DNA of 64,000 nt, from positions 7,221 to 71,220 of the forward strand of contig NZ_JAFUHT010000034.1 of NCBI RefSeq assembly GCF_017468685.1, given 5' to 3'. Positions 9,272 to 64,000 of the stretch are shown here, piece after piece (within the stretch, counting starts at the first letter, position 1; each line of letters opens with the position of its first letter). Origin of the DNA: Methanobrevibacter sp. Its GTDB lineage: Archaea; Methanobacteriota; Methanobacteria; Methanobacteriales; Methanobacteriaceae. Below the pieces are notes generated by a model that was given only the letters and a program-made list of their open reading frames with translations, ran no database searches and was not told the DNA's origin. Position numbers and translations under genes: made by a program.

Positions 9272-10639
9272 GTGAATTTTAATATTAATATTTTCAAAAC
9301 ACCTGAAGGTTATCTATATTCAAATAAAGCATTACTTGCTTTATTCATTCCTCTTTTAATAGAATATGCACTGGAATTTTTTGTAGGTTTTGCAGATTCA
9401 GTCATGGTTGCATCACTTGGTGAAGCTGCAATTTCAGGTGTTTCTTTAGTTGATTTTCTGATGCAACTACTTATTTTTTCATTTTCTGCTCTTGCAACGG
9501 GTGGAGCAGTTGTAGCCGGTCAATACTTGGGTGATAAACAGATTGGCAAGGCTCAAAATTCAGCAACTCAATTGGTATGGTTTTCAACAATTTTATCCAT
9601 AGTTTTAATGGTTTTGGTAATTATTTTAAAACAAATGCTGATTGGTGTGCTATTCGGTCAGATTGAAGCGGATGTCTGGTCAAATGCAGAATTGTATTTG
9701 TATATTGTTGCATTATCCATTCCATTCATTGCAATATATAATTCAGGAGCAGCAATTTTTAGAACAACCAATGATGCGACATTGCCTATGAAAATAATGT
9801 TTGTCTGTGACATTTTAAACATTTTGGGCAATGCCTTCTGCATTTATTATCTCGGATGGGATGTTCGTGGAGTGGCAATTCCAACAGTAATTTCAAGAGT
9901 GTTGGCAGCACTTTTAGTATTGTACTTTGTTGTTGATGAAGACTATAAGTTACATATCAAGAGAACATTAAAACATAGGTTCGACACTAAAATACTTAAA
10001 AAGGTACTGCAGGTCGGCATTCCATATGGTATTGAAAACGGACTGTTCCAGCTTGGAAGAGTCCTGATTTTGAGTCTGGTTTCAACATTCGGTACAATGG
10101 CTATTGCAGCAAACTCTGTAGGTTATGCAATAGGAATATTTTCAGTACTGCCGGGCTTTGCAATAAATCTAGGTTTGACTGCAGTGATATCAAATTGCGT
10201 CGGTGCTGATGACTATGAACAGGCAAGATATTATAACAGGAAATGCCTAATCTTAGTATATGTATCTCACATTGCCATTAACCTGGTCATTTTTGCAATA
10301 TTGCCTATGATTTTAGGAATTTATAATCTGTCTGATCAAACCGCTGTAATGGCAAGTGAAATGATAATATGGCATGGAATATTTGCAATGATAGTCTGGC
10401 CGTTGGCATTTACAATACCGGCAACATTCAGAGGTGCAGGGGACTCAAAATCAGTAATGTATATTAGTCTGATTGTCATGTTTACATGCAGAATTGCTCT
10501 TGCATATGTTATTGCAGATTGGATGCATGTCGGAGTGTTTGGAACATGGATTGCAATGTTTATTGACTGGTTTGTACGTGCAGGAATTTACATTTACAGA
10601 TACTTTTCAAATAAATGGACAGAATATAGGGTGGTATAA
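9272..10639 (+). CDS. MATE family efflux transporter
   Basis: Multi-TM; DSVMVASLGEAAISGVSL, GVAIPTVISR; GTG start. Confidence 0.9.
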   Translation: MNFNINIFKTPEGYLYSNKALLALFIPLLIEYALEFFVGFADSVMVASLGEAAISGVSLVDFLMQLLIFSFSALATGGAVVAGQYLGDKQIGKAQNSATQLVWFSTILSIVLMVLVIILKQMLIGVLFGQIEADVWSNAELYLYIVALSIPFIAIYNSGAAIFRTTNDATLPMKIMFVCDILNILGNAFCIYYLGWDVRGVAIPTVISRVLAALLVLYFVVDEDYKLHIKRTLKHRFDTKILKKVLQVGIPYGIENGLFQLGRVLILSLVSTFGTMAIAANSVGYAIGIFSVLPGFAINLGLTAVISNCVGADDYEQARYYNRKCLILVYVSHIAINLVIFAILPMILGIYNLSDQTAVMASEMIIWHGIFAMIVWPLAFTIPATFRGAGDSKSVMYISLIVMFTCRIALAYVIADWMHVGVFGTWIAMFIDWFVRAGIYIYRYFSNKWTEYRVV

Positions 10640-24508: not shown

Positions 24509-25772
<1,264 letters not shown>

Positions 25773-52461: not shown

Positions 52462-52534
<73 letters not shown>

Positions 52535-52574: not shown

Positions 52575-53657
52575 ATGTTGTTAATTGCTCAAAACCACTT
52601 ACAATTAATTGTAGAAGTAGCTATTATGCTATTTGTTGTATGGGTGTTTGCTTTAAACTTAATCCCATTATCTTTAAGTGTAGTGACCTTTTTATCATTG
52701 TTTATCATGGGAGGTTTCACATTAATTTTTGGAGCAGATATTGCACTTTTGGTAATATCCTCAAGTCAGGCGGAATTCACTCACCCATTCGGTCCGATAG
52801 CATTGCTTGGAACTGTGGCGGCTTTAGCATCTCTGAAGGTAATGAAGGAATCGGGTGTGGATATCAGGCCACTTAGAAGATTTGTAATTTTATTCCTTGC
52901 AGGTATAACCATATTTGGTGGATTAATGCACAGATCCTTTTTATTATTATGGTTAATCGGTTTATTCTTCGGATACTTAATGATTTCCAAGTCATTCAGG
53001 GAAAAATCAGTATTCACAGCAAGAAGAATCATGATGTTTTTAGGAGCTGCAGGCGTTGGTTTTGTACTGTTGGAGATTATTGCAAGAGTATCTGGAATGA
53101 CAATTTTTTCACCTTTATTGAGGTTGGGAAGGATTGAACAATACTCTTTGTCAAGTATTAAGACAGTATTGCATAATATTCAACTGATTGGTCACAGTGC
53201 AGATGCTTCATATTGGGGAGCAGAAGGTACGGCATTCGCTGAAGGTTATATTACCCTGCCGATGCAGCTGGTACTGTTCTTCGGTCTTCCATTCCCGATG
53301 TTTTTCGGTATTCTTGTAAATCAAAAGGATACAATCGATTATATGCTTCCGGGTATTTTCGGATACGGTTTTGACTTTGGTATACTTGGACTTGTCGGAT
53401 TGATGTTATTTGTAGTCGGAACCATTGTAATAGGATTTAAAGTATTGAAGAAATACAGAGAGAAAAGAGAGAAAAATAATAAGAAATATCTTGGAAGAGA
53501 AGTATTATTAACTGGTGCTCTAGCATCATTCTGTGCACAATCATTAATCGGATTGTTTATATTTAACAGGTCTATTAATGGTATGGCATTATTAACATTC
53601 ATTTTCGTAGGTACATTGATTTTAGCTAATGTAGTTACACTTAAAACAAGATCATAA
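52575..53657 (+). CDS. Multi-pass membrane protein, hypothetical
   Basis: Roughly 10 TM helices. Confidence 0.75.
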   Translation: MLLIAQNHLQLIVEVAIMLFVVWVFALNLIPLSLSVVTFLSLFIMGGFTLIFGADIALLVISSSQAEFTHPFGPIALLGTVAALASLKVMKESGVDIRPLRRFVILFLAGITIFGGLMHRSFLLLWLIGLFFGYLMISKSFREKSVFTARRIMMFLGAAGVGFVLLEIIARVSGMTIFSPLLRLGRIEQYSLSSIKTVLHNIQLIGHSADASYWGAEGTAFAEGYITLPMQLVLFFGLPFPMFFGILVNQKDTIDYMLPGIFGYGFDFGILGLVGLMLFVVGTIVIGFKVLKKYREKREKNNKKYLGREVLLTGALASFCAQSLIGLFIFNRSINGMALLTFIFVGTLILANVVTLKTRS

Positions 53658-53668
53658 GAGGTAGTTAT

Positions 53669-54127
53669 ATGAAAGCTTTGGTATTGCTAGGATGTCCTGA
53701 AACTCCATCTCAAACTCCAATGGCAGTTTATGTTTTTAATAAATTAACAAAATTGGGTTATGATACAACTATTGCAGCTAATCCTGCAGCTAAAAAACTG
53801 GTTAAAATTTCTGACCCTGAAGATTATTATAAGTTAAATATAGTTGATTTAGAAAGACTTTTAGGTGAAATAAACTCTGGTGACTTTGATTTATTAGTGG
53901 GTTTTGTTCACAAGGACGCAGCAGCATCATTTTTCGTAACATTTGAACAGATTTTACAATGCAAATCACTTGCCCTTGTATTTTCAAGAGATGCAGATGA
54001 AGTGGCGGAATTTGTAACAATGATTGAAGAAAGCGGAAGCAACGCTTTAATCACTGCTGTAAGAGCTTTCCATAATCCTTCACCAATTAAAGTTAAATTT
54101 GACAGAGCAATTAAGGAGATTGAATAA
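53669..54127 (+). CDS. DUF1890 family protein
   Basis: LLGCPE.P.Q, DPE.YY, A.HNP. Confidence 0.75.
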   Translation: MKALVLLGCPETPSQTPMAVYVFNKLTKLGYDTTIAANPAAKKLVKISDPEDYYKLNIVDLERLLGEINSGDFDLLVGFVHKDAAASFFVTFEQILQCKSLALVFSRDADEVAEFVTMIEESGSNALITAVRAFHNPSPIKVKFDRAIKEIE

Positions 54128-54128
54128 A

Positions 54129-54443
54129 ATGTCTTTCTGTTTAGATACTTATTTACAGCAATCCGATAATTATGAGATTCATGCTTCAAAAGCAGGTTTT
54201 AAAGACTGTGCCATGATTATCCGTTTTAAAGCTGATGATTTGGTATATATTAAACCTGGAGATGAAGTATTAGGTGTTCGTGTAATAGGTATTCCACCAA
54301 TACCAATAGGATTTGATCATGAAAAAGGAACCGTTTTCCTACCATACACCAAACCGTGTCACGGAACATCAGTTGTGGAGCTTCCAATTGATGAAGAAGA
54401 AGTTGAAAAAATCAGAAAATTAGATACTGGTAATAAAAAATGA
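54129..54443 (+). CDS. DUF1894 family protein
   Basis: M.FCLD, PG..VLG.RVIG.PPIPIG, PYTKPCHGT. Confidence 0.75.
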   Translation: MSFCLDTYLQQSDNYEIHASKAGFKDCAMIIRFKADDLVYIKPGDEVLGVRVIGIPPIPIGFDHEKGTVFLPYTKPCHGTSVVELPIDEEEVEKIRKLDTGNKK

Positions 54444-55384
54444 AATCAACTGTAGTTGGAAGTTTTCCAGTTGAAGTAAAAGAAGCAACTTCAACTAAAG
54501 ATAAATTGCTCAAGGCATTAGGTGCATATGATGCATTTAATGAATCAATTAAAGAGAGTATTATCGCCCAGCTTGATGCAGGCGTAGATATTGTTTCTGA
54601 CGGTCAGGTCAGGGGTGACATGGTTTCTATTTTTACTGAATATATTCCCGGAATGAAAATTGTTGACGGCAATACTGAGATTGTCTCAAAAATCAGAAAG
54701 CCTATTCAGGAAATTTCCATTAAAGACCTTCAGTATGCTAAAAAAGTAATGAAAGAATATTTCAACGGCAATATTCCCGAAGGAAAAGGTGTTAAAGGAA
54801 TCATTACTGGTCCAAATACTATTGTTCACTCTTCAAGAATTCAGGGTTTCTATAAAAACAAGGAAGATGCCATACTTGATTTGGCTCACAGCCTTAAATA
54901 TGAAGTGGATGCGATTGCCAGTAAAGTGGAACCTGTATACATTCAAATTGACGAACCGTTTTTATCAACTGGTATGGTTGATATGAAAACTGCCCGTGAA
55001 GCTATTTCAATTTTAAAAGATGGTTTGGATGTTCCTTTGGCTATGCATGTTTGTGGTATATTAAAGGATGCTTTTAAAGATATTGCTCGTTTTAATGTTG
55101 ATATTCTTGATTTTGAATTTGCAGGAAACAATGTTAATTTAGGAGTTTTAGAGGAGAATTATAATTTGATTTCTGATAAAAAGATCGGCTTTGGATGTGT
55201 TGACTCATCAGTAAATACTGTTGATAATATTGATGATGTTGAGGATTTGATTAAAAAAGCTGTTGAAATTGTTGGAAAGGACAATTTACTATTGGACCCT
55301 GATTGCGGTTTGAGAAGAGCTCCAAAAGATGTTGCATTTGAAAAATTAAAAATAATGAATGTATTAAAAGATAAATACAGTTAA
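54440..55384 (+). CDS. Archaeal core methionine synthase (MetE C-terminal-like)
   Basis: TVVGSFP, SDGQ.R, KGIITGP.T, QIDEP, HVCG, DPDCGL. Confidence 0.88.
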   Translation: MKSTVVGSFPVEVKEATSTKDKLLKALGAYDAFNESIKESIIAQLDAGVDIVSDGQVRGDMVSIFTEYIPGMKIVDGNTEIVSKIRKPIQEISIKDLQYAKKVMKEYFNGNIPEGKGVKGIITGPNTIVHSSRIQGFYKNKEDAILDLAHSLKYEVDAIASKVEPVYIQIDEPFLSTGMVDMKTAREAISILKDGLDVPLAMHVCGILKDAFKDIARFNVDILDFEFAGNNVNLGVLEENYNLISDKKIGFGCVDSSVNTVDNIDDVEDLIKKAVEIVGKDNLLLDPDCGLRRAPKDVAFEKLKIMNVLKDKYS

Positions 55385-55432
55385 TAATTAAAATAAATTA
55401 ATGTTTAATTTGTTTTACAAATTAAACATATT

Positions 55433-56452
55433 TTATATGAATAAACTCATATCACTTTTTTCTCCGGAACCAATAAATGTTGATACTCCACCTAGTTCAA
55501 CTCCATCTATCAGTTCTTCTTTATGGATTCCCATAATGTCCATTGACATCTGACATGCTACAAGACGAACTCCATGTTCTTTTGCTGTTTCAACTAATTC
55601 TTCGAGGGATAAAATTCCTTTGGAATCCATTATTGACCTGATCATTCTTGGGCCTGCACCTGCCATTTGCATTCTTGACAATCCTAATTTTTTGGTTCCT
55701 CTTGGCATCATGAATCCAAATGCCTTTTCAATCAATGTCTTTTTGACACTTACTTTTTCAGGTCTTCTTAGGATGTTTAATCCCCAGAATGTGAAAAACA
55801 TTGTTACATCTCTTCCCATTGATGCGGCTCCATTTGCTATGATGAATGCTGCAATGGTTTTATCTAAATCTCCACTGAATACTACAAAAGTCTTGTCATT
55901 GTCTGCTGGTATTTGTGGTTTATCTATTTTTTGTATTACTGCTTTTATGATTCCATCTTCAATTTTTAATGATTCCAAATTATTTCCTGTTCTTTCAGCC
56001 CATATTTTTATGTCTGATTCGAACGCATCTTCAGTTGCTTCAACATATACTTTCTGACCATCTCTTAATTCTTTGATTGTATCTGCAACTTTAATGATTG
56101 GTCCTGGACACATTTCGCCTTTAGCATCAATTTTTACAGGTTCAAGTGAACTTACATGATTTTTATAGGCTTCATATCCTCCTTCGAGGGTATATGCATC
56201 GTATCCTAATTCGGATAATTGTTCAACTGCTTCGTTACTTCTTTTTCCTGTTTTACAGTAAATGTAGATTTTTTTATTTTTATCTATTGAATCTAAGTTG
56301 TATGATATTTCTTCTAATGGTATATGTATTGAATTTTCAATTTTTCCTAGATTTAATTCTTCCTTGTCTCTCACATCAATCAGTATTGTTGTGTTTGACT
56401 CTTCGTTTAAGTATTCTTCGATAGTAATTGTGTTAGTCATGTTTTTCATCAC
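55433..56452 (-). CDS. Rhodanese-TusA/SirA-DsrE fusion sulfur-relay protein
   Basis: IDVR...CKTGKRS rhodanese; DAKGEMCPGP TusA; FSGDLD, FFTFWGL, ACQMSM DsrE. Confidence 0.85.
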   Translation of the reverse strand: MMKNMTNTITIEEYLNEESNTTILIDVRDKEELNLGKIENSIHIPLEEISYNLDSIDKNKKIYIYCKTGKRSNEAVEQLSELGYDAYTLEGGYEAYKNHVSSLEPVKIDAKGEMCPGPIIKVADTIKELRDGQKVYVEATEDAFESDIKIWAERTGNNLESLKIEDGIIKAVIQKIDKPQIPADNDKTFVVFSGDLDKTIAAFIIANGAASMGRDVTMFFTFWGLNILRRPEKVSVKKTLIEKAFGFMMPRGTKKLGLSRMQMAGAGPRMIRSIMDSKGILSLEELVETAKEHGVRLVACQMSMDIMGIHKEELIDGVELGGVSTFIGSGEKSDMSLFI

Positions 56453-56637
56453 TTTTATTTTTTTTCGCCCGAGTAATGAAAACGCAAAAAAATAACAATA
56501 GTTATATTTTGCTAAATTAATATTTTGTAAAGAGGTATTTAAATCTATTGTTTAATCTGATCATATTTGCTAAATTACAAAAATATTTTACATCAATATA
56601 GTTATTTTACTTCAATTTTTTTAATCAGTTATAAAAA

Positions 56638-56655
56638 ATATAACAATAGTTATAT
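56638..56655 (+). promoter_or_regulatory. 18-bp palindrome ATATAAC-AATA-GTTATAT over the adhesin 1 TATA box
   Basis: Identical copies at 59491-59508 and, reversed, at 24509-24526; 17/18 match at 56490-56507. Confidence 0.6.
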
Positions 56656-56680
56656 ACTAGAAGATATAAACTACATATTC

Positions 56681-56788
56681 GCCAGACTACTTTTAAATGT
56701 CATCAAAAAATATGATGATATTTTTCATTCACACACCAAAAACCTGGTTACGCAAGTAATCAATCAAAAAAATGGAGGTTTTCAATTC
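56681..56788 (+). promoter_or_regulatory. Conserved structured 5' leader of adhesin 1
   Basis: Shares sequence blocks and two hairpins with 59534-59659. Confidence 0.6.
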
Positions 56789-59437
56789 GTGATTGATAAA
56801 AAATATGTTCTAATATTATTAGTTCTATTCTTCATTGCTATAAATTCAGTAAACGCAACCTCAGATATAGATTTAGTCTCAAATAGTAGTGATGATGAAT
56901 TGTCAGCAGATAATTTGGACAATATTTTAAGTGAACAAACAGGAACATTTACAGAATTACAGGAATTAGTAAGTAGTGGCGGAACTATAGATTTAACAAA
57001 AGACTATAAATTCGACAGTTCCACAGATGATGACTTTAATGATGGAATTTCAATATCCAGAAGTGTTACTATTAATGGGAATAATCATGTAATAGACGCT
57101 CAGGGTCAAGGAAGGATCTTTGAAATTACAGCTAGCAATGTTATACTAAAAGATTTAACCATAATCAACGGATATTATTATCACTACCGTTATAATAACG
57201 ATTATGGTGGAGCTATTTACTGGAGCGGAAGTAACGGTCAGGTAATTAACTCAACCTTTAAAAACAATTATGCAGATGATACTGGAGGAGCTATCTACTG
57301 GGCAGGAAGTAATGGAAAAATTACTAACTCTCACTTTGATAACAACACAGCATACAATGGCCAGGGCGGAGCAATATATGCTCCTAAAAACGCTAATGGA
57401 ATTACAATTTCAAACTCCAATTTCACCAACAATAAAGTACTGGGATCTGCTGGTTACGGTGGAGCATTATACTTTTGGACATGTGCAAATGCAGTAGTGA
57501 TAAATTCAAGATTCATAAATAATAGCGCTACCAATGGTGGAGCAATAGGTGGAGACTCAAGTAACAATGCACAATTCACAAGCCTATACTTTAAAGGCAA
57601 TAAAGGGTATCGCGGTGGAGCAATCTACTGGTATCGTGGTGAAAAAGCAACATTGAAAAATTCCACATTTATAGAAAACAATGCAACATCAACAAATGGT
57701 GGAGGAGCAATCCACTGGTACAATAGCCCAAATGGAGTTATAACAAATTCAACATTTATAGGAAATAAGGCACTACGAACAAATGGTGGAGCAATCAGAT
57801 TCCAAGACACTAACAAAGGAGAAATATCAAAATCAATCTTTATCAATAACACTGCCCTAAACAATGGTGGTGCTATAAGTTGGGAAAATAGTAATGGTGA
57901 AATATCAACATCTGAATTCATTAACAATGCTGCAACTTATGGACAATCCGTAAGAATAAATAAAGGCACTGTTAAAGTTTCAGATTCAAACTTTACAGAT
58001 AAAACATCAAGTTATAGTATATTTTCAACTTCAGATTTGACTTTAAGTAATAATAACTTAAATGAAGAGAATTATATCTATCTGGAGGATAAGAAAATTC
58101 TTTCAAAAACTAATATTATCGTTTTAGAAAATCAAACAAAGTACTCTCTCTCAAATGTCACTTTAAAAGCTCTAATATTCGATGATAACAATAACAAGAT
58201 TGTCTTGTCTGGTAATTTCACCAGGTTAAAATTTGATGTTGATAAAAATTTAGTTGAAGCAGCACAGAATGAATATGGTGTATGGTCCTATGATTATACA
58301 TTCACAAAGCCTGGAGTTTATGTTGTTTCAGCTTCTCAGGAAAACTTAACAACAGCAAATATCTTTAAAGGTACAGTAATTATTAAGTTTGACTCTAAAT
58401 TCAACATTTCAACCAAAGATATTAATTTGGGTGAAAACGCTACTATTACTATCACTTTGGATGAAGATGCTCGTGGAAACATAACTTTAATAATAGGAAA
58501 TGAAACCTATAAAATTCAATTGAATGACACTAATAAAGGTGTAATTGAATTTAATGTTACATTTGAAGATGCTGGAACATATAATGTTACTGCAATTTAC
58601 ACAAGCAATAATGATTACTTCGATAGCTCTTTGAATGCAACAATTAAAGTGAAACCTTTTATTACAGTCTTTGCAGAAAACCTGACAAGGGGATATAACT
58701 CCGGCAAAGACTTTGAGGCAACATTTAAAGATAAATATGGAAAAGAATTAAAGAATTCTGAAGTAGAATTCATAATCAACAATCATTCATATAAGGTTAA
58801 AACAGATAATAATGGTGTAGCAATTTTAAACGCTAAATTGTATTCGGGTAAGTACACTGTTGAAGTTAAAAATTTGTTAACCAATGAAAGTTTGATTAGA
58901 TCATTGAATATTGTTGATAGGATACAGGAAAATTCAGATTTGAATATTTTCTACAGACAGTCCTATTATACAGTACGTGCATACGGTGATGATGGAAACC
59001 CGGTTAAAGCAGGTGAAATCGTGACTTTTAAGGTTCATGGAGTAACCTATTATGTTAAAACTAATAATAATGGATATGCTTCACTTAAAATTAATCTTGC
59101 ACATAAGACATATATTATCACTGCTGAATATAAAGGATTTAAGGTTTCCAATAAAATCGTAGTTAAACCTGTTATTATCGCTAAAAATGTTAAAGTGAAA
59201 AAATCCTCAAAGACCATTAAAATTAAGATTACACTTAAAGCTAAAAGTGTTCTTAAAAATAAAAAACTAAAAGTTAGGTTTAAAGGAAAAACATTTAAAC
59301 TTAAAACAAATGGTAAAGGCATTGCTTACTTTAAAATTAAGAAAAACATTATTAAAAAACTTAAGAAAGGTAAAACATACAAATATAAAGTAATTTATAT
59401 TGAGGATAGTGTTACTAAAACTATCAAAATTAAATAA
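56789..59437 (+). CDS. Adhesin-like protein 1 (beta-helix GGAIYW repeats, Ig-like domains, Lys-rich tail)
   Basis: GTG at 56789 after GGAGG gives a signal peptide; the track's upstream TTG extension runs through promoter DNA. Confidence 0.88.
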   Translation: MIDKKYVLILLVLFFIAINSVNATSDIDLVSNSSDDELSADNLDNILSEQTGTFTELQELVSSGGTIDLTKDYKFDSSTDDDFNDGISISRSVTINGNNHVIDAQGQGRIFEITASNVILKDLTIINGYYYHYRYNNDYGGAIYWSGSNGQVINSTFKNNYADDTGGAIYWAGSNGKITNSHFDNNTAYNGQGGAIYAPKNANGITISNSNFTNNKVLGSAGYGGALYFWTCANAVVINSRFINNSATNGGAIGGDSSNNAQFTSLYFKGNKGYRGGAIYWYRGEKATLKNSTFIENNATSTNGGGAIHWYNSPNGVITNSTFIGNKALRTNGGAIRFQDTNKGEISKSIFINNTALNNGGAISWENSNGEISTSEFINNAATYGQSVRINKGTVKVSDSNFTDKTSSYSIFSTSDLTLSNNNLNEENYIYLEDKKILSKTNIIVLENQTKYSLSNVTLKALIFDDNNNKIVLSGNFTRLKFDVDKNLVEAAQNEYGVWSYDYTFTKPGVYVVSASQENLTTANIFKGTVIIKFDSKFNISTKDINLGENATITITLDEDARGNITLIIGNETYKIQLNDTNKGVIEFNVTFEDAGTYNVTAIYTSNNDYFDSSLNATIKVKPFITVFAENLTRGYNSGKDFEATFKDKYGKELKNSEVEFIINNHSYKVKTDNNGVAILNAKLYSGKYTVEVKNLLTNESLIRSLNIVDRIQENSDLNIFYRQSYYTVRAYGDDGNPVKAGEIVTFKVHGVTYYVKTNNNGYASLKINLAHKTYIITAEYKGFKVSNKIVVKPVIIAKNVKVKKSSKTIKIKITLKAKSVLKNKKLKVRFKGKTFKLKTNGKGIAYFKIKKNIIKKLKKGKTYKYKVIYIEDSVTKTIKIK

Positions 59438-59490
59438 TGATTTTTATTTTACCTTTCAATTTTTTTTATTTTTTTTGCAAAATGGTAAAA

Positions 59491-59508
59491 ATATAACAAT
59501 AGTTATAT
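59491..59508 (+). promoter_or_regulatory. 18-bp palindrome over the adhesin 2 TATA box
   Basis: ATATAACAATAGTTATAT. Confidence 0.6.
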
Positions 59509-59533
59509 ACTAGAATGTATAAACTTAATACTC

Positions 59534-59659
59534 ACCAGGCTACTTTTAAAAAAATTTGTTGAAAAATAATATTCAACATTCACACACACCAAAAAATCAA
59601 CAATAACAGATTACATGCTGTAATCTTAATATAAAAATTACACAGGAGGCTTCATTTTC
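59534..59659 (+). promoter_or_regulatory. Conserved structured 5' leader of adhesin 2
   Basis: Shares sequence blocks and two hairpins with 56681-56788. Confidence 0.6.
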
Positions 59660-62600
59660 GTGAATAAGAAAATACTAATCACAATATTATTGATATTAGC
59701 AATAGCCAGCATAACTACAGTAAATGCAGTAACCGATGAAGCAACAACTGCAACAACTGATGCTAGTGAATTAACAATTGCTGATGATCAAGAAAATACA
59801 ATAATAACTGAAACAGAAAACGACATAACAAGTGCTGATGATACTGAAATCGGTACTTACAATGAATTAAAAAACTTAATAAATACAAATACAAATGGAA
59901 CAATAGAACTGACAAAGGATTATATATTTGATTCCTCTGCAAGCAAAACTGGTATCCTAATCGATGATGATCATGATGGTTTGACAATAGATGGAAAAAA
60001 TCATAAGATTGATGCAAACGGATTTAGTCAGATATTCCATATTAATGCAGATAATGTTATTTTAAAAAATATAATCTTTATCAATGGTAAATCAACTCAA
60101 ACCACTTCTGATTATTACGGTGGAGCTATAAGATGGTATGGGGATGATGCTACAATTATAAACTCTACTTTTATCAATAATGCAGCTGGAAGATATGGTG
60201 GAGCTGTAACATTTTATTATACCTCTGGAAAAATAATTAATTCCACATTCATAAACAATACTGCAGCAACAGACGGTGGGGCATTTTATGAATATGGATC
60301 AGGTTCATCATATAATGTTGAAATAACTAATTCCAAATTTATTAACAATAAAGCTTTAAGTTCAAGCGGTAACGGTGGAGCTATTTATTTATATCAAAGT
60401 CCAAATTCTAAACTTTTAAATTCCACTTTTATAAATAATACTGCAGGAAAGTTTGGTGGTTCCATATATTGGTACGGTGCAGATAGTGTAATATCTGATA
60501 TAACTGTAATTAACAGTACTACAACATCTTCTAGTGGTCAGGGAGGCTCATTGCATATTGCAACTGGGTCAGGAACAACAATATCAAATTCAAATTTCAT
60601 CAATTCAAAATCAAAAACTGGTGGTGCAGTATATATAGATGACCCTGATATTACTATTGAAAATTCTAAATTCATTAACAGCAATGCAACAACAAGTGCT
60701 GGTGCAATTTATGTAAATGATAAAAATATTAAAATTATTAATTCAACTTTCATTAATTCGACTGCTGCAGGCAGTGGAGGAACATTTTATTGGGTAGGTG
60801 CAAATGGAAATATTATTAATTCCACAATCATCAATTCAAGTTCCAAAAGCTATGCTGGAGCAGTTTACTGGGCAGGTTCATCTAACACATATGGTCAAAT
60901 AATAAATACTACATTTATTAATTCAACAGCTACAAATCAAGGTGGAACTATTTATTGGGCTAGTAATTATGGAAGTTTAATAAACATTACAATAGAAAAT
61001 TCCAAATCCGATGCACGTGGAGGTATCATTTACTGGACAGGTCAATATGGTACTATAACTAATTCTAAATTCATCAACGGTACTGCAGCAACAGATGGTG
61101 GTGTAATCTATTGGTATAGTCGTAATCCAACAATTACAAATAACGAATTCATAAATAACACTGCTTTAAATGGTAATGCTGGAGCAATTTACATTTTTCA
61201 ATCAGCAACTCCTGTGTTATCTGGAAATAAATTTAAGAATAATAATGCATCTGGAAATGGTGGTGCAATAGTATTTGATGGAAGTAGTTCAGGAGAAATT
61301 GTTCAATCAGAATTCATCAATAATACTGCAGCAAAAATTGGAGGGGCTATTTATGCATCTTCCAGTAGCAGTATTTCACTTCAAAAATTAAACTTTGAAG
61401 ATAATACCGCATTAACAAATGCAGGTGCTGTCTATATAACTGCTAGTGACAATCCGGAAATAATTGATGCGACATTTAAAAATAACATTGCAGGTCAAAA
61501 TGGTGGAGCAGTTTACATATACAACAGTCAAGGAGCAGAATTGAACAATATCCAATTCATCAATAATACTGCATTAAATGGAGGATCAATTTATATCTCT
61601 GCAAGTTCAAGTTATTCAAGCACTAATACATTAGAAATATTAAATTCAAATTTTACAAGAAATACTGCAACTAATGATGGTGGTGCTATTTATTGGTTAA
61701 GTTCTTCCGATGATAAAGGAAGCATTTCTCAATTGAACTTCAATGACAATAATGCAGTTAATGGTGGTGCATTTTATATTTCAGGAGCATATAATGCTAA
61801 AGTTTCACAGTTAACATTCAATAACAATACTGCTGCAAATAATGGTGGAGCATTACTCTTGACCAATGTTGATAAATCCACATTCAATGAAATCACATTC
61901 AACAATAACACTGCAGTCAACGGTGGTGCTGTCTATTCATTCAATGGTGGAGATGACACTACAATAACTGAATCTCATTTCAGTGATAATACTGCAGTTA
62001 ACGGTGGGGCTATTTACTTAAATGATGTTGAAGATTATGAAATTACAGGCTCTGATTTCAGAAATAACAATGCAGTTAACGGAGGATCCGTCTTTTTAAA
62101 CAATACTGTCAATACTGAAATTTCAGAAGATACATTTTCCAAAAATACTGCAGATAATGGTGCTTCATTATATGTAATTGATGGTTCAGCATCTGTTTTA
62201 AACTCTGCATTTTCTGAAGATGTTGCAAATGAAAATGGAGTAATTTACATTGACAGTGGTGCTTTAACTGTAACTGAATCATTAATATCAAGTCTTGAAA
62301 CTAAATATGCAATTTACTCAGCTGGAACTTTAACTCTTTCACAAAACACTCTTGGTGATGAAAATTATATTTTCTTAGCTAAAAATAGTATTTCATCTGA
62401 AGTTAACATTGAAATAGTGGATGATGAAGATTATCAGGGCGGTTTAGATTATAATTTAACTGCAATCATAACAGATGATAATGATAATAGGATTATTTTA
62501 GCAGATAATAACTTAAAATTCATCATTGAAGAAGAGGAAGTTGAAGCAGTACAGGATGAAAACGGTATCTGGACTAATGAGTATACTTTTGAGAAAAGCG

Positions 62601-64000
62601 GTGAATATGTAATTTCTGCAAAACATGCCGGTCTTACAGGTTCTACAGTTAAATCAAATACCATTATTATAAAATTAATTGCTAATTTAGATGTCACATC
62701 CAATGATGTTGATTACTTAAATAATGTAACAATTACTATTAAATTGGATAATAATGCTCGTGGTAATGTTTCAGTATATATTGATGACTTTGAGCAAATC
62801 ATTGAATTAAATGACACCAACAATGGTGAAATTAAAGTTAATGTTCCTAACTTAAATGCAGGATATTATGACATTACTGTAATTTATGATGGAGATGATG
62901 AATACTTTGCAGATTATAAATCAACCAACATTACTGTAAACAAGATTAATCCAATAATAATCATTGTTTCACAGGATATTGAAGCTGATAATCCTGTTAA
63001 CGTTAGTGCTGTAGTGGCAGATACTGTAACCGGTAAATTAACTATTACTGTTGACGGCAAATCTTATGTTGTTTCAAGCAATGAAAATGTAACCATTAAT
63101 GATTTAACTCCTGGAAGTTATTCAATTGTTGTAAATTACGCTGGAGATAACAATTACAATGGATTAACCAATACTTCTTCATTTAAAGTAAGTAAAAAAG
63201 ATGTTGTTCCAAGTGATGATCAAACCAATTTGATTACTGTTTCTGATGATGGTAAAGTTAATTTGAATTTACCTGAAACTGCTTCAAGCTATGTTTTAAT
63301 TGATATTGACGGAACTCTTTACGCTGCTGAAGTAAAAGACGGTAAAATTGATTTTGAATTGCCAAAAACATTATCTTCTGGAAATCATACAGTTGTATTT
63401 AAATACTTGGGTGATGATAATTTCGCATCATTTGAAGTAACTCAAACAGTTAATGTAAATTCCAATTCTGCAGCAAGTAAAACCCAAACACAAATCATTG
63501 TGCCTAATGTCAATATTGTGTATAATTCAGGTAATCTGATTGCATCATTAAAAGATGCTAATGGTAAAGTTTTAGCAAATAAAATAGTTAAAGTTTCAAT
63601 TGGTAGTGTCAATCAGGTATTGACCACCGATTCAAACGGTCAGGTTAAATTGGCAATCACTTTAGCACCAAAAACTTATACTGCAACTGTTACTTTCGAG
63701 GGTGATGATCAATATGTTAAATCATCAGCTAATGCTAAAGTGGTAGTTAATAAAGCTAAATCATCAATTGCAGCTAAAAACAAAAAATTCAAAGCTAAAA
63801 CAAAAACTAAAAAATACACTATTACATTAAAAAACAATAAGGGAAAAATTATTAAAAATGCAAAAGTTACCTTGAAAGTTAAGGGTAAACTTTACAAGGC
63901 AAAAACAAATGCTAAAGGTAAAGCAACCTTTAAAATTACAAAATTAACCAAAAAAGGTAAATTCAAAGCAGTTATTAAATTTGCAGGTAATAGTTATTTC
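59660..64000 (+). CDS. Adhesin-like protein 2, at least 1447 aa, runs off the window (absent from the ORF track)
   Basis: GGAGG RBS, GTG, signal peptide MNKKILITILLILAIASITTVNA; GGAI repeats; the last window codons are in the same frame. Confidence 0.88.
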   Translation, partial: MNKKILITILLILAIASITTVNAVTDEATTATTDASELTIADDQENTIITETENDITSADDTEIGTYNELKNLINTNTNGTIELTKDYIFDSSASKTGILIDDDHDGLTIDGKNHKIDANGFSQIFHINADNVILKNIIFINGKSTQTTSDYYGGAIRWYGDDATIINSTFINNAAGRYGGAVTFYYTSGKIINSTFINNTAATDGGAFYEYGSGSSYNVEITNSKFINNKALSSSGNGGAIYLYQSPNSKLLNSTFINNTAGKFGGSIYWYGADSVISDITVINSTTTSSSGQGGSLHIATGSGTTISNSNFINSKSKTGGAVYIDDPDITIENSKFINSNATTSAGAIYVNDKNIKIINSTFINSTAAGSGGTFYWVGANGNIINSTIINSSSKSYAGAVYWAGSSNTYGQIINTTFINSTATNQGGTIYWASNYGSLINITIENSKSDARGGIIYWTGQYGTITNSKFINGTAATDGGVIYWYSRNPTITNNEFINNTALNGNAGAIYIFQSATPVLSGNKFKNNNASGNGGAIVFDGSSSGEIVQSEFINNTAAKIGGAIYASSSSSISLQKLNFEDNTALTNAGAVYITASDNPEIIDATFKNNIAGQNGGAVYIYNSQGAELNNIQFINNTALNGGSIYISASSSYSSTNTLEILNSNFTRNTATNDGGAIYWLSSSDDKGSISQLNFNDNNAVNGGAFYISGAYNAKVSQLTFNNNTAANNGGALLLTNVDKSTFNEITFNNNTAVNGGAVYSFNGGDDTTITESHFSDNTAVNGGAIYLNDVEDYEITGSDFRNNNAVNGGSVFLNNTVNTEISEDTFSKNTADNGASLYVIDGSASVLNSAFSEDVANENGVIYIDSGALTVTESLISSLETKYAIYSAGTLTLSQNTLGDENYIFLAKNSISSEVNIEIVDDEDYQGGLDYNLTAIITDDNDNRIILADNNLKFIIEEEEVEAVQDENGIWTNEYTFEKSGEYVISAKHAGLTGSTVKSNTIIIKLIANLDVTSNDVDYLNNVTITIKLDNNARGNVSVYIDDFEQIIELNDTNNGEIKVNVPNLNAGYYDITVIYDGDDEYFADYKSTNITVNKINPIIIIVSQDIEADNPVNVSAVVADTVTGKLTITVDGKSYVVSSNENVTINDLTPGSYSIVVNYAGDNNYNGLTNTSSFKVSKKDVVPSDDQTNLITVSDDGKVNLNLPETASSYVLIDIDGTLYAAEVKDGKIDFELPKTLSSGNHTVVFKYLGDDNFASFEVTQTVNVNSNSAASKTQTQIIVPNVNIVYNSGNLIASLKDANGKVLANKIVKVSIGSVNQVLTTDSNGQVKLAITLAPKTYTATVTFEGDDQYVKSSANAKVVVNKAKSSIAAKNKKFKAKTKTKKYTITLKNNKGKIIKNAKVTLKVKGKLYKAKTNAKGKATFKITKLTKKGKFKAVIKFAGNSYF

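Follow-up and report, generated by a model that had tools for sequence, protein, structure and literature searches.

Does a pair of neighbouring adhesin-like genes in a gut methanogen share a structured RNA leader, or do the two genes merely carry ordinary upstream DNA of common descent? The pair lies near the end of the 64,000-nucleotide (nt) stretch analysed here (the window; contig NZ_JAFUHT010000034.1 of assembly GCF_017468685.1), which comes from a gut-metagenome Methanobrevibacter whose nearest named proteins are from Methanobrevibacter sp. A sequence-only reading of this DNA had proposed a conserved, covarying cis-regulatory RNA of roughly 110-125 nt ahead of both genes. The reading that best fits our results is an ordinary, lineage-specific cassette of promoter and 5' untranslated region (5'UTR), and not a new covarying RNA family. 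The palindrome inside the shared promoter, which points to a sulfur regulon, is a more promising lead than the leader itself.

Layout and reach of the shared leader

The two genes are co-oriented on the forward strand. Gene 1 (56789-59437) starts with GTG and encodes 882 amino acids (aa) with beta-helix/PMP repeats and a Big_3_5 domain behind the signal peptide MIDKKYVLILLVLFFIAINSVNA; gene 2 (59660-64000), also with a GTG start, continues past the window end and amounts to 1457 aa in the sequence L039. Both products combine a signal peptide, beta-helix/PMP repeats and immunoglobulin-like domains and appear to be the usual adhesin-like proteins. They are 34-40% identical over their alignable parts and are old paralogues. 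Each gene has its own intergenic region upstream, and a T-rich stretch follows the stop codon of gene 1, about 50 nt ahead of the second promoter block.

Both upstream regions begin with an identical block on the forward strand (56634-56662 for gene 1, 59487-59515 for gene 2). This identity had been recognised before, at a length of 28 base pairs (bp); it extends over 29 bp. The block holds a perfect inverted repeat, ATATAAC-AATA-GTTATAT (ATATAACAATAGTTATAT; 56638-56655 and 59491-59508), the right half of which is the TTATATA box starting at 56650 and 59503. At 31 nt from the start of this box, at 56681 and 59534, (G/A)CCAG (block RCCAGRCTACTTTTAAA) opens a leader 5' block in both genes (GCCAGACTACTTTTAAA, 56681-56697; ACCAGGCTACTTTTAAA, 59534-59550), and CTACTTTTAAA occupies 56687-56697 and 59540-59550. 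Hairpin 1 follows at 56696-56722 in gene 1 (AATGTCATCA-AAAAATA-TGATGATATT; 10 bp including one G-U pair, then T5) and at 59557-59578 in gene 2 (TGTTGAA-AAATAATA-TTCAACA; 7 bp). Next come a CA-rich block (56726-56742, CATTCACACACCAAAAA; 59577-59595, CATTCACACACACCAAAAA, with one CA unit more than gene 1) and hairpin 2 (56746-56761, GGTTAC-GCAA-GTAATC; 59608-59626, AGATTAC-ATGCT-GTAATCT). A GGAGG Shine-Dalgarno (SD) motif, a 10-nt spacer and the GTG start close the leaders at 56774-56791 (GGAGG at 56774, GTG at 56789) and 59645-59662 (GGAGG at 59645, GTG at 59660), with the same TTCGTG start context in both genes. The sequence-only reading had placed all of these elements correctly, including (G/A)CCAG(A/G)CTACTTTTAAA at its fixed distance from the TATA box.

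Between the two genes, CTACTTTTAAA and CACACACCAAAAA (56730-56742 and 59583-59595) are offset by 2853 nt, as is the promoter; there is therefore no net insertion or deletion over the 109 nt from promoter to CA block. The likeness of the paralogues is a mosaic of blocks and not a uniform conservation: from the promoter through the leader 5' block 56/63 positions are identical, and the remaining leader reaches an identity of 0.54 per alignment column, compared with 0.49 +/- 0.03 in shuffles and 0.49 in the coding DNA. We take this comparison to show that the two upstream regions are homologous. Within the CA tract, (CA)3C at 56730-56737 stands against (CA)4C at 59583-59592, a dinucleotide length change of the slippage type.

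The transcription start was predicted from the TATA distance only and falls between A56677 and G56681 in gene 1 and between A59530 and A59534 in gene 2. A start about 22-26 nt after the TATA box would yield leaders of about 108-130 nt, depending on the start chosen, and the 5' block of gene 1 would begin at this start or about 4 nt after it. Counted from the predicted start, hairpin 1 opens after 15-20 nt in gene 1 and after 24-28 nt in gene 2, so that the hairpins would lie downstream of this start and hence be transcribed. No RNA run containing the species was found. The sequencing run X13 is labelled as RNA and behaves like DNA; the repeat boundary within the promoter is where its contigs start, and they are silent on 5' ends.

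The reach of the leader was then assessed by a series of searches. In this genome, the leader blocks CCAGRCTACTTTTAAA, CATTCACACAC and CACACACCAAAAA occur nowhere but at the two genes, and a covariance model spanning hairpin 2 to the start codon likewise returned only these two loci. None of 103 genus and 314 family genomes contains the pattern CTACTTTTAAA-N(10-50)-CACACACC, and BLAST with the leader against 101 genus genomes gave no match beyond the promoter part. Five matches to the CTACTTTTAAA-CACACACC pattern in Joint Genome Institute (JGI) metagenomes turned out to be unrelated DNA. Across the genus, the 5' block alone is as frequent as its reversed-pattern control, without enrichment; the same holds for hairpin 2 combined with GGAGG, and the two matches to the latter that looked intergenic belong to unrelated genes. 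Searching the whole window against Rfam 15 at gathering score returned only the tRNA at 52462, and at E values up to 5 the region 56450-59720 gave two chance matches inside gene 1 and none in the leaders, in agreement with the earlier remark that no known family was recognisable. By these searches, the leader is confined to two genes of one lineage. A conserved cis-regulatory RNA would be expected to recur ahead of related genes in several lineages and to carry two-sided compensatory pairs; this leader recurred in none of the genomes searched and has almost no covariation, and we do not regard it as a conserved RNA family.

A palindrome at sulfur-type promoters

The promoter block has a different distribution from the leader. 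Its palindrome core has four sites in the window, corresponding to 7 strand-wise matches where 0.27 would be expected. Beyond the two adhesin promoters, a third copy (56490-56507, no strand assigned) lies 40 nt from the start of a rhodanese-TusA-DsrE fusion gene (55433-56452, reverse strand) that is divergent from gene 1, and a fourth (24509-24526) stands ahead of a MoaE gene on the reverse strand. Genome-wide we counted 10 exact copies and 19 with one mismatch. The genes behind them encode MoaE, two Cys_Met_Meta_PP enzymes/sulfhydrylases dependent on pyridoxal phosphate (PLP), a CysK-like PALP protein and a nitrogenase-like Oxidored_nitro protein, furthermore PdxS, a class-II amidotransferase, a GMC oxidoreductase, a ThiF-like and a SufC-like protein and the rhodanese-TusA-DsrE fusion, as well as a conserved 111-aa MIINWQEE protein. 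One more adhesin-like gene is preceded by the palindrome, which makes three in total, in this species only.

When the upstream region of gene 1 was compared with the 101 genus genomes by BLAST, every genome gave a match, essentially through the promoter only (query 1-55). The same sulfur-type gene set lies behind the palindrome in other genomes of the genus, and a looser form, TATAAC-WWTW-GTTATA, stands both in this genome and across the genus ahead of sulfur, Cys/Met and cofactor genes that form a coherent set. One inverted repeat is thus found at promoters of functionally linked genes in several species, which is how the box of a regulon is recognised. The identical block had been regarded as part of an adhesin element; it rather appears to be a genus-wide palindromic promoter/operator of sulfur-type genes that is not specific to adhesins. 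We consider the palindrome a candidate operator of an undescribed sulfur/Cys-Met regulon; a literature search for a description of this palindrome found none.

Two further observations concern the genes behind the palindrome. Directly behind one copy outside the window (genome G000, contig C61, about 10560-10630) lies a mini open reading frame (ORF) of 22 codons, many of them for Cys and Met (MCRCIIMVHKCCHMCMPLVMRM). The nitrogenase-like gene, with a palindrome of its own, follows downstream. The product of the ORF could be a small metal/sulfur peptide or a leader peptide that senses Cys/Met. The rhodanese-TusA-DsrE gene is accessory: among 11 genus relatives searched, only one has a copy (72% identity), again with two palindromes upstream.

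Constraint and turnover in a relative

No orthologues of the adhesin genes were found in the genus reference genomes and genome contigs, and the protein database held same-strain copies only, the next homologue being 49% identical. L039 is 99.98% identical and the public scaffold L040, from the same species, has a gap of Ns over the leader, so that neither is informative. This gap (1721-1765 of L040) covers exactly the promoter and leader of gene 1; the repeated promoter block probably breaks the assembly there. Other strains of the species have an unchanged gene-1 leader and two single-nucleotide polymorphisms in the spacer of gene 2, and are equally uninformative. A route by synteny through the rhodanese-TusA-DsrE gene led to one other relative only, where the contig ends.

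The leaders of a relative were read, by means of difference tables and loose ends, from Logan contigs of the runs X9-X13, which contain both genes at about 90-94% identity. For gene 2 the complete orthologous leader was obtained (X9/X10), and for gene 1 all but the middle 23 nt, the expected site of the CA block. Contigs of runs X9 and X13 diverge from the window by 6-10% in the adhesin genes (56789-60400) and by 11-15% in the adjacent housekeeping genes (52575-56460). A different, more abundant species in the samples may be the source of the housekeeping contigs; either the contigs belong to different organisms, or an exchange of the adhesin locus took place after the genomes had split. Because of this possible mixture of species, the adhesin genes, together with their intergenic DNA, served as the neutral yardstick.

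In the gene-2 orthologue, the promoter carries 2 changes in 46 nt, the core of the 5' block none (0/14), hairpin 2 with its flanks a single one in the loop (1/27), and the region from SD to start again none (0/19). Taken together, 1/60 positions changed in the blocks and 21/69 elsewhere in the leader (p = 7.5e-6), and the latter fraction exceeds even that at third codon positions of gene 2 (7/96, p = 1e-4). These counts show constraint on the first ~14 nt, hairpin 2 and the SD-start region, and show the hairpin-1 and CA regions to turn over faster than neutral sites, in clusters. The 5' block of gene 1 is retained in the relative as well, so that both orthologues keep it. The CA block had been described as a conserved single-stranded linker. 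In the gene-2 orthologue it is the most changed piece of the leader, with about 9 changes in 18 nt (CATTCACACACACCAAAAA to CTTTATTAACGCACTAAAAA). Differences between gene 2 and its orthologue within 59660-59946 are spread evenly over the three codon positions (5, 5, 7), and for this reason the N-terminal part of gene 2 appears to evolve almost without purifying selection.

Hairpin 1 behaves differently in the two genes. In the gene-2 orthologue a different stem of 9-10 bp, AAATATTAT(T)/(A)ATAATATTT, has its centre 4.5 nt farther upstream. Of the 6 differences, 5 create precisely the stem of the window, and four substitutions are clustered within 59556-59561. Such a cluster looks like the signature of a template-switch mutation, which makes perfect hairpins in a single event (PMC8794818). 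In gene 1 (ATGTCATC/GATGATAT, orthologue ATATTATC/GATAATAT) the register is kept, the loop differs, and the stem shows one compensatory exchange of C-G to U-A plus one of G-U to A-U. Between genes 1 and 2, the hairpin-1 stems differ in register.

The two genes share the arm sequence of hairpin 2. The gene-1 orthologue has GATTAC-ATTAT-GTAATC, and gene 2 of the relative X13 has AGATAAC-ATGCT-GTAACTT, with two pairs broken; over five sequences, 0/7 pairs show a two-sided change and two cells are unpaired. The claim that the leader covaries is therefore not supported by either hairpin, as hairpin 2 has no two-sided changes and hairpin 1 a single compensatory pair, its register otherwise changing, in a set of five sequences at most that is too small for a significance test.

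Three other candidate mechanisms were examined and set aside. Upstream ORFs (gene 1 from 56697, MSSKNMMIFFIHTPKTWLRK; gene 2 from TTG 59556, ..HSHTPKNQQ) lack an SD, and neither orthologue has a start codon for them; that the CA block is translated as HTPK in both of them (56697-56759 and 59556-59606), in a common frame, is probably a coincidence. An attenuator composed of hairpin 1 and a U-run was rejected with the T5 run present in gene 1 only, and an anti-SD pairing (AAAACCU/AGGUUUU) likewise exists in gene 1 only and is not common to both leaders.

Explanations and known systems

On balance, we think it probable that each of the tandem adhesin-like paralogues has retained its copy of a single ancestral promoter and 5'UTR cassette with generic stem-loops. 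The palindrome would then act as promoter and as binding site of a dimeric regulator, and both adhesins would be switched together with the sulfur regulon. The conserved 5' block may represent the initially transcribed sequence or the 5' end, hairpin 2 may be an AU-rich stem-loop that, from its position ahead of the ribosome site, adjusts translation or mRNA stability in an ompA-like manner, and the SD-start region would bind the ribosome. Hairpin 1 and the CA tract would be labile parts, rewritten by clustered palindrome-making mutations of the template-switch type and by CA-repeat slippage. Turnover of this kind could imitate a structure kept while the sequence changes, with no specific RNA ligand or partner required.

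Several points weigh against the cassette explanation. The operator role of the palindrome is based on gene context only, and transcription of the leader is deduced from the promoter rather than demonstrated. The perfectly kept 5' block of 14-17 nt has no assigned function. Although the coding DNA of the paralogues is saturated, their CA blocks are nearly identical, a likeness for which neutral turnover fails to account unless micro-conversion occurred. Lastly, a hairpin stands near the same place in 4/4 leaders, two orthologues included (combined p = 0.003), and hairpin 1 of gene 1 contains one true compensatory pair relative to its orthologue; both give a hint of selection on hairpin 1 as RNA.

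This hint would be expected from a dedicated lineage-specific cis-regulatory RNA, whose 5' end and two hairpins would bind a protein or small RNA controlling the stability or translation of both adhesin mRNAs. Such an RNA, which amounts to the sequence-only proposal stripped of its family claim and which we consider possible though not likely, would explain strongly constrained blocks inside an otherwise fast-changing leader, hairpins at one place with different arms each time, and the C-G to U-A exchange and G-U wobbles on the sense strand. Folding is also strand-asymmetric: RNAfold z-scores are -2.98 (sense) and -0.84 (antisense) in gene 1, and -1.63 (sense) and -0.02 (antisense) in gene 2. 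What speaks against it is the restriction to two genes of one lineage, with no match among the 103 genus or 314 family genomes and no relative in Rfam, together with a hairpin 2 that does not covary and is broken in X13, the register shift of hairpin 1 in gene 2, and a CA linker that is not retained. Moreover, neither a conserved loop nor a conserved junction accompanies the hairpins, which are simple AU stems. From the proposed cis-regulatory RNA leader, we retain homologous upstream regions, hairpins located after the predicted start and a folding preference for the sense strand, and we give up the conserved family; no feature points to a riboswitch-like fold.

At the other extreme, only the promoter and the ribosome site would be functional, the remainder being residue of tandem duplication or short gene conversion and the hairpins chance palindromes in AT-rich DNA. 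Among low-GC 34-nt windows in the genome, 25% contain a perfect stem of 7 bp or more, 11% one of 8 bp or more and 1.8% one of 10 bp or more, and hairpin 1 of gene 2, with its 7 bp, is unremarkable on its own for that reason. In addition, outside the blocks the two leaders resemble each other no more than shuffled sequences do, no further copy of the element was found, and the CA block is common to the paralogues and not to the gene-2 orthologue, as conversion would yield. However, unconstrained non-coding DNA between genes whose proteins have diverged this far should be unrecognisable, hairpin 2 with its flanks is nearly unchanged where the neighbouring leader of the same orthologue differs at ~30% of positions, and the recurrence of hairpins in all four leaders exceeds chance. 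We hold this explanation to be unlikely, because a purely neutral course fails to account for the contrast between blocks and non-blocks in view of the far-diverged proteins. The sequence-only reading had itself named a recent tandem duplication with neutral decay among the results that would overturn its proposal; of this, a duplicated cassette is probable and pure neutrality is not.

Similarly low is the chance we give to a combined scenario, in which a young lineage-specific adhesin RNA binds a factor through its 5' end and hairpin 2, hairpin 1 is selected as "any hairpin" while its arms are rewritten by template switching, and the operator wires three adhesin-like genes into an undescribed sulfur (Cys/Met) regulon, which would link attachment to partner or host with sulfur supply. 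Least probable, and in our judgement very unlikely, is that the leader pieces act as DNA, with GATTAC-N4-5-GTAATC and the +1 to +17 block as operators for a roadblock repressor downstream of the start: the arms of hairpin 2 are conserved and not covarying, as in a protein-binding palindrome, and the 5' block is conserved without a pairing partner, but the spacer varies between 4 and 5 nt, GGTTAC in gene 1 is a mismatch in DNA while forming a G-U pair in RNA, the motif does not exceed control level in other intergenic regions of the genome or genus, and the folding asymmetry favours a sense-strand RNA.

As a true regulatory RNA, the leader would open a way into the control of the large adhesin repertoires of gut methanogens; the evidence points instead to an ordinary duplicated promoter and 5'UTR. 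The adhesin genes carry the operator-like sulfur/Cys-Met palindrome of the genus, which yields a testable prediction of co-regulation. The locus also provides a clean small example of clustered palindrome-making mutations that imitate "structure conserved, sequence changed", and calls for caution with covariation claims drawn from two sequences.

Known systems resemble the locus in different parts. As in template-switch hairpins (PMC8794818), four substitutions in 6 nt turn one arm of hairpin 1 into the exact reverse complement of nearby sequence and create a new perfect stem in one lineage, whereas here the direction of change and an origin in a single event are not demonstrable from two lineages, and selection for the hairpin is compatible with the same pattern. 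With the cis-regulatory families of Rfam, the leader has in common its 5'UTR position ahead of the ribosome site, and it differs in having no match, no multi-stem junction, no conserved loop and no phylogenetic spread.

The 5'UTR of Escherichia coli ompA is an mRNA stabiliser of an abundant surface protein. Like it, each leader here would cover ~110-130 nt ahead of a secreted surface protein and run from single strand to hairpin, single strand, hairpin and ribosome site, with stem-loops that would matter by structure rather than by sequence. The two are unrelated in sequence, and the likeness is one of layout, read from the DNA letters alone. In ompA, the first hairpin has to stand at the very 5' end to protect against RNase E, whereas 14-20 unpaired, conserved nt precede hairpin 1 here, and archaea are not known to have RNase E.

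For the palindrome, the nitrogen operator of NrpR in Methanococcus maripaludis, GGAA-N6-TTCC, is an archaeal palindromic operator for comparison; such operators overlap the B recognition element (BRE)/TATA region or the transcription start. Both are short perfect inverted repeats at the promoters of related genes, sometimes in tandem, as at the sites on contigs C61 and C75. In contrast to the NrpR operator, ATATAAC-N4-GTTATAT itself contains TATA-like boxes, and its putative regulon would serve sulfur and Cys/Met metabolism rather than nitrogen.

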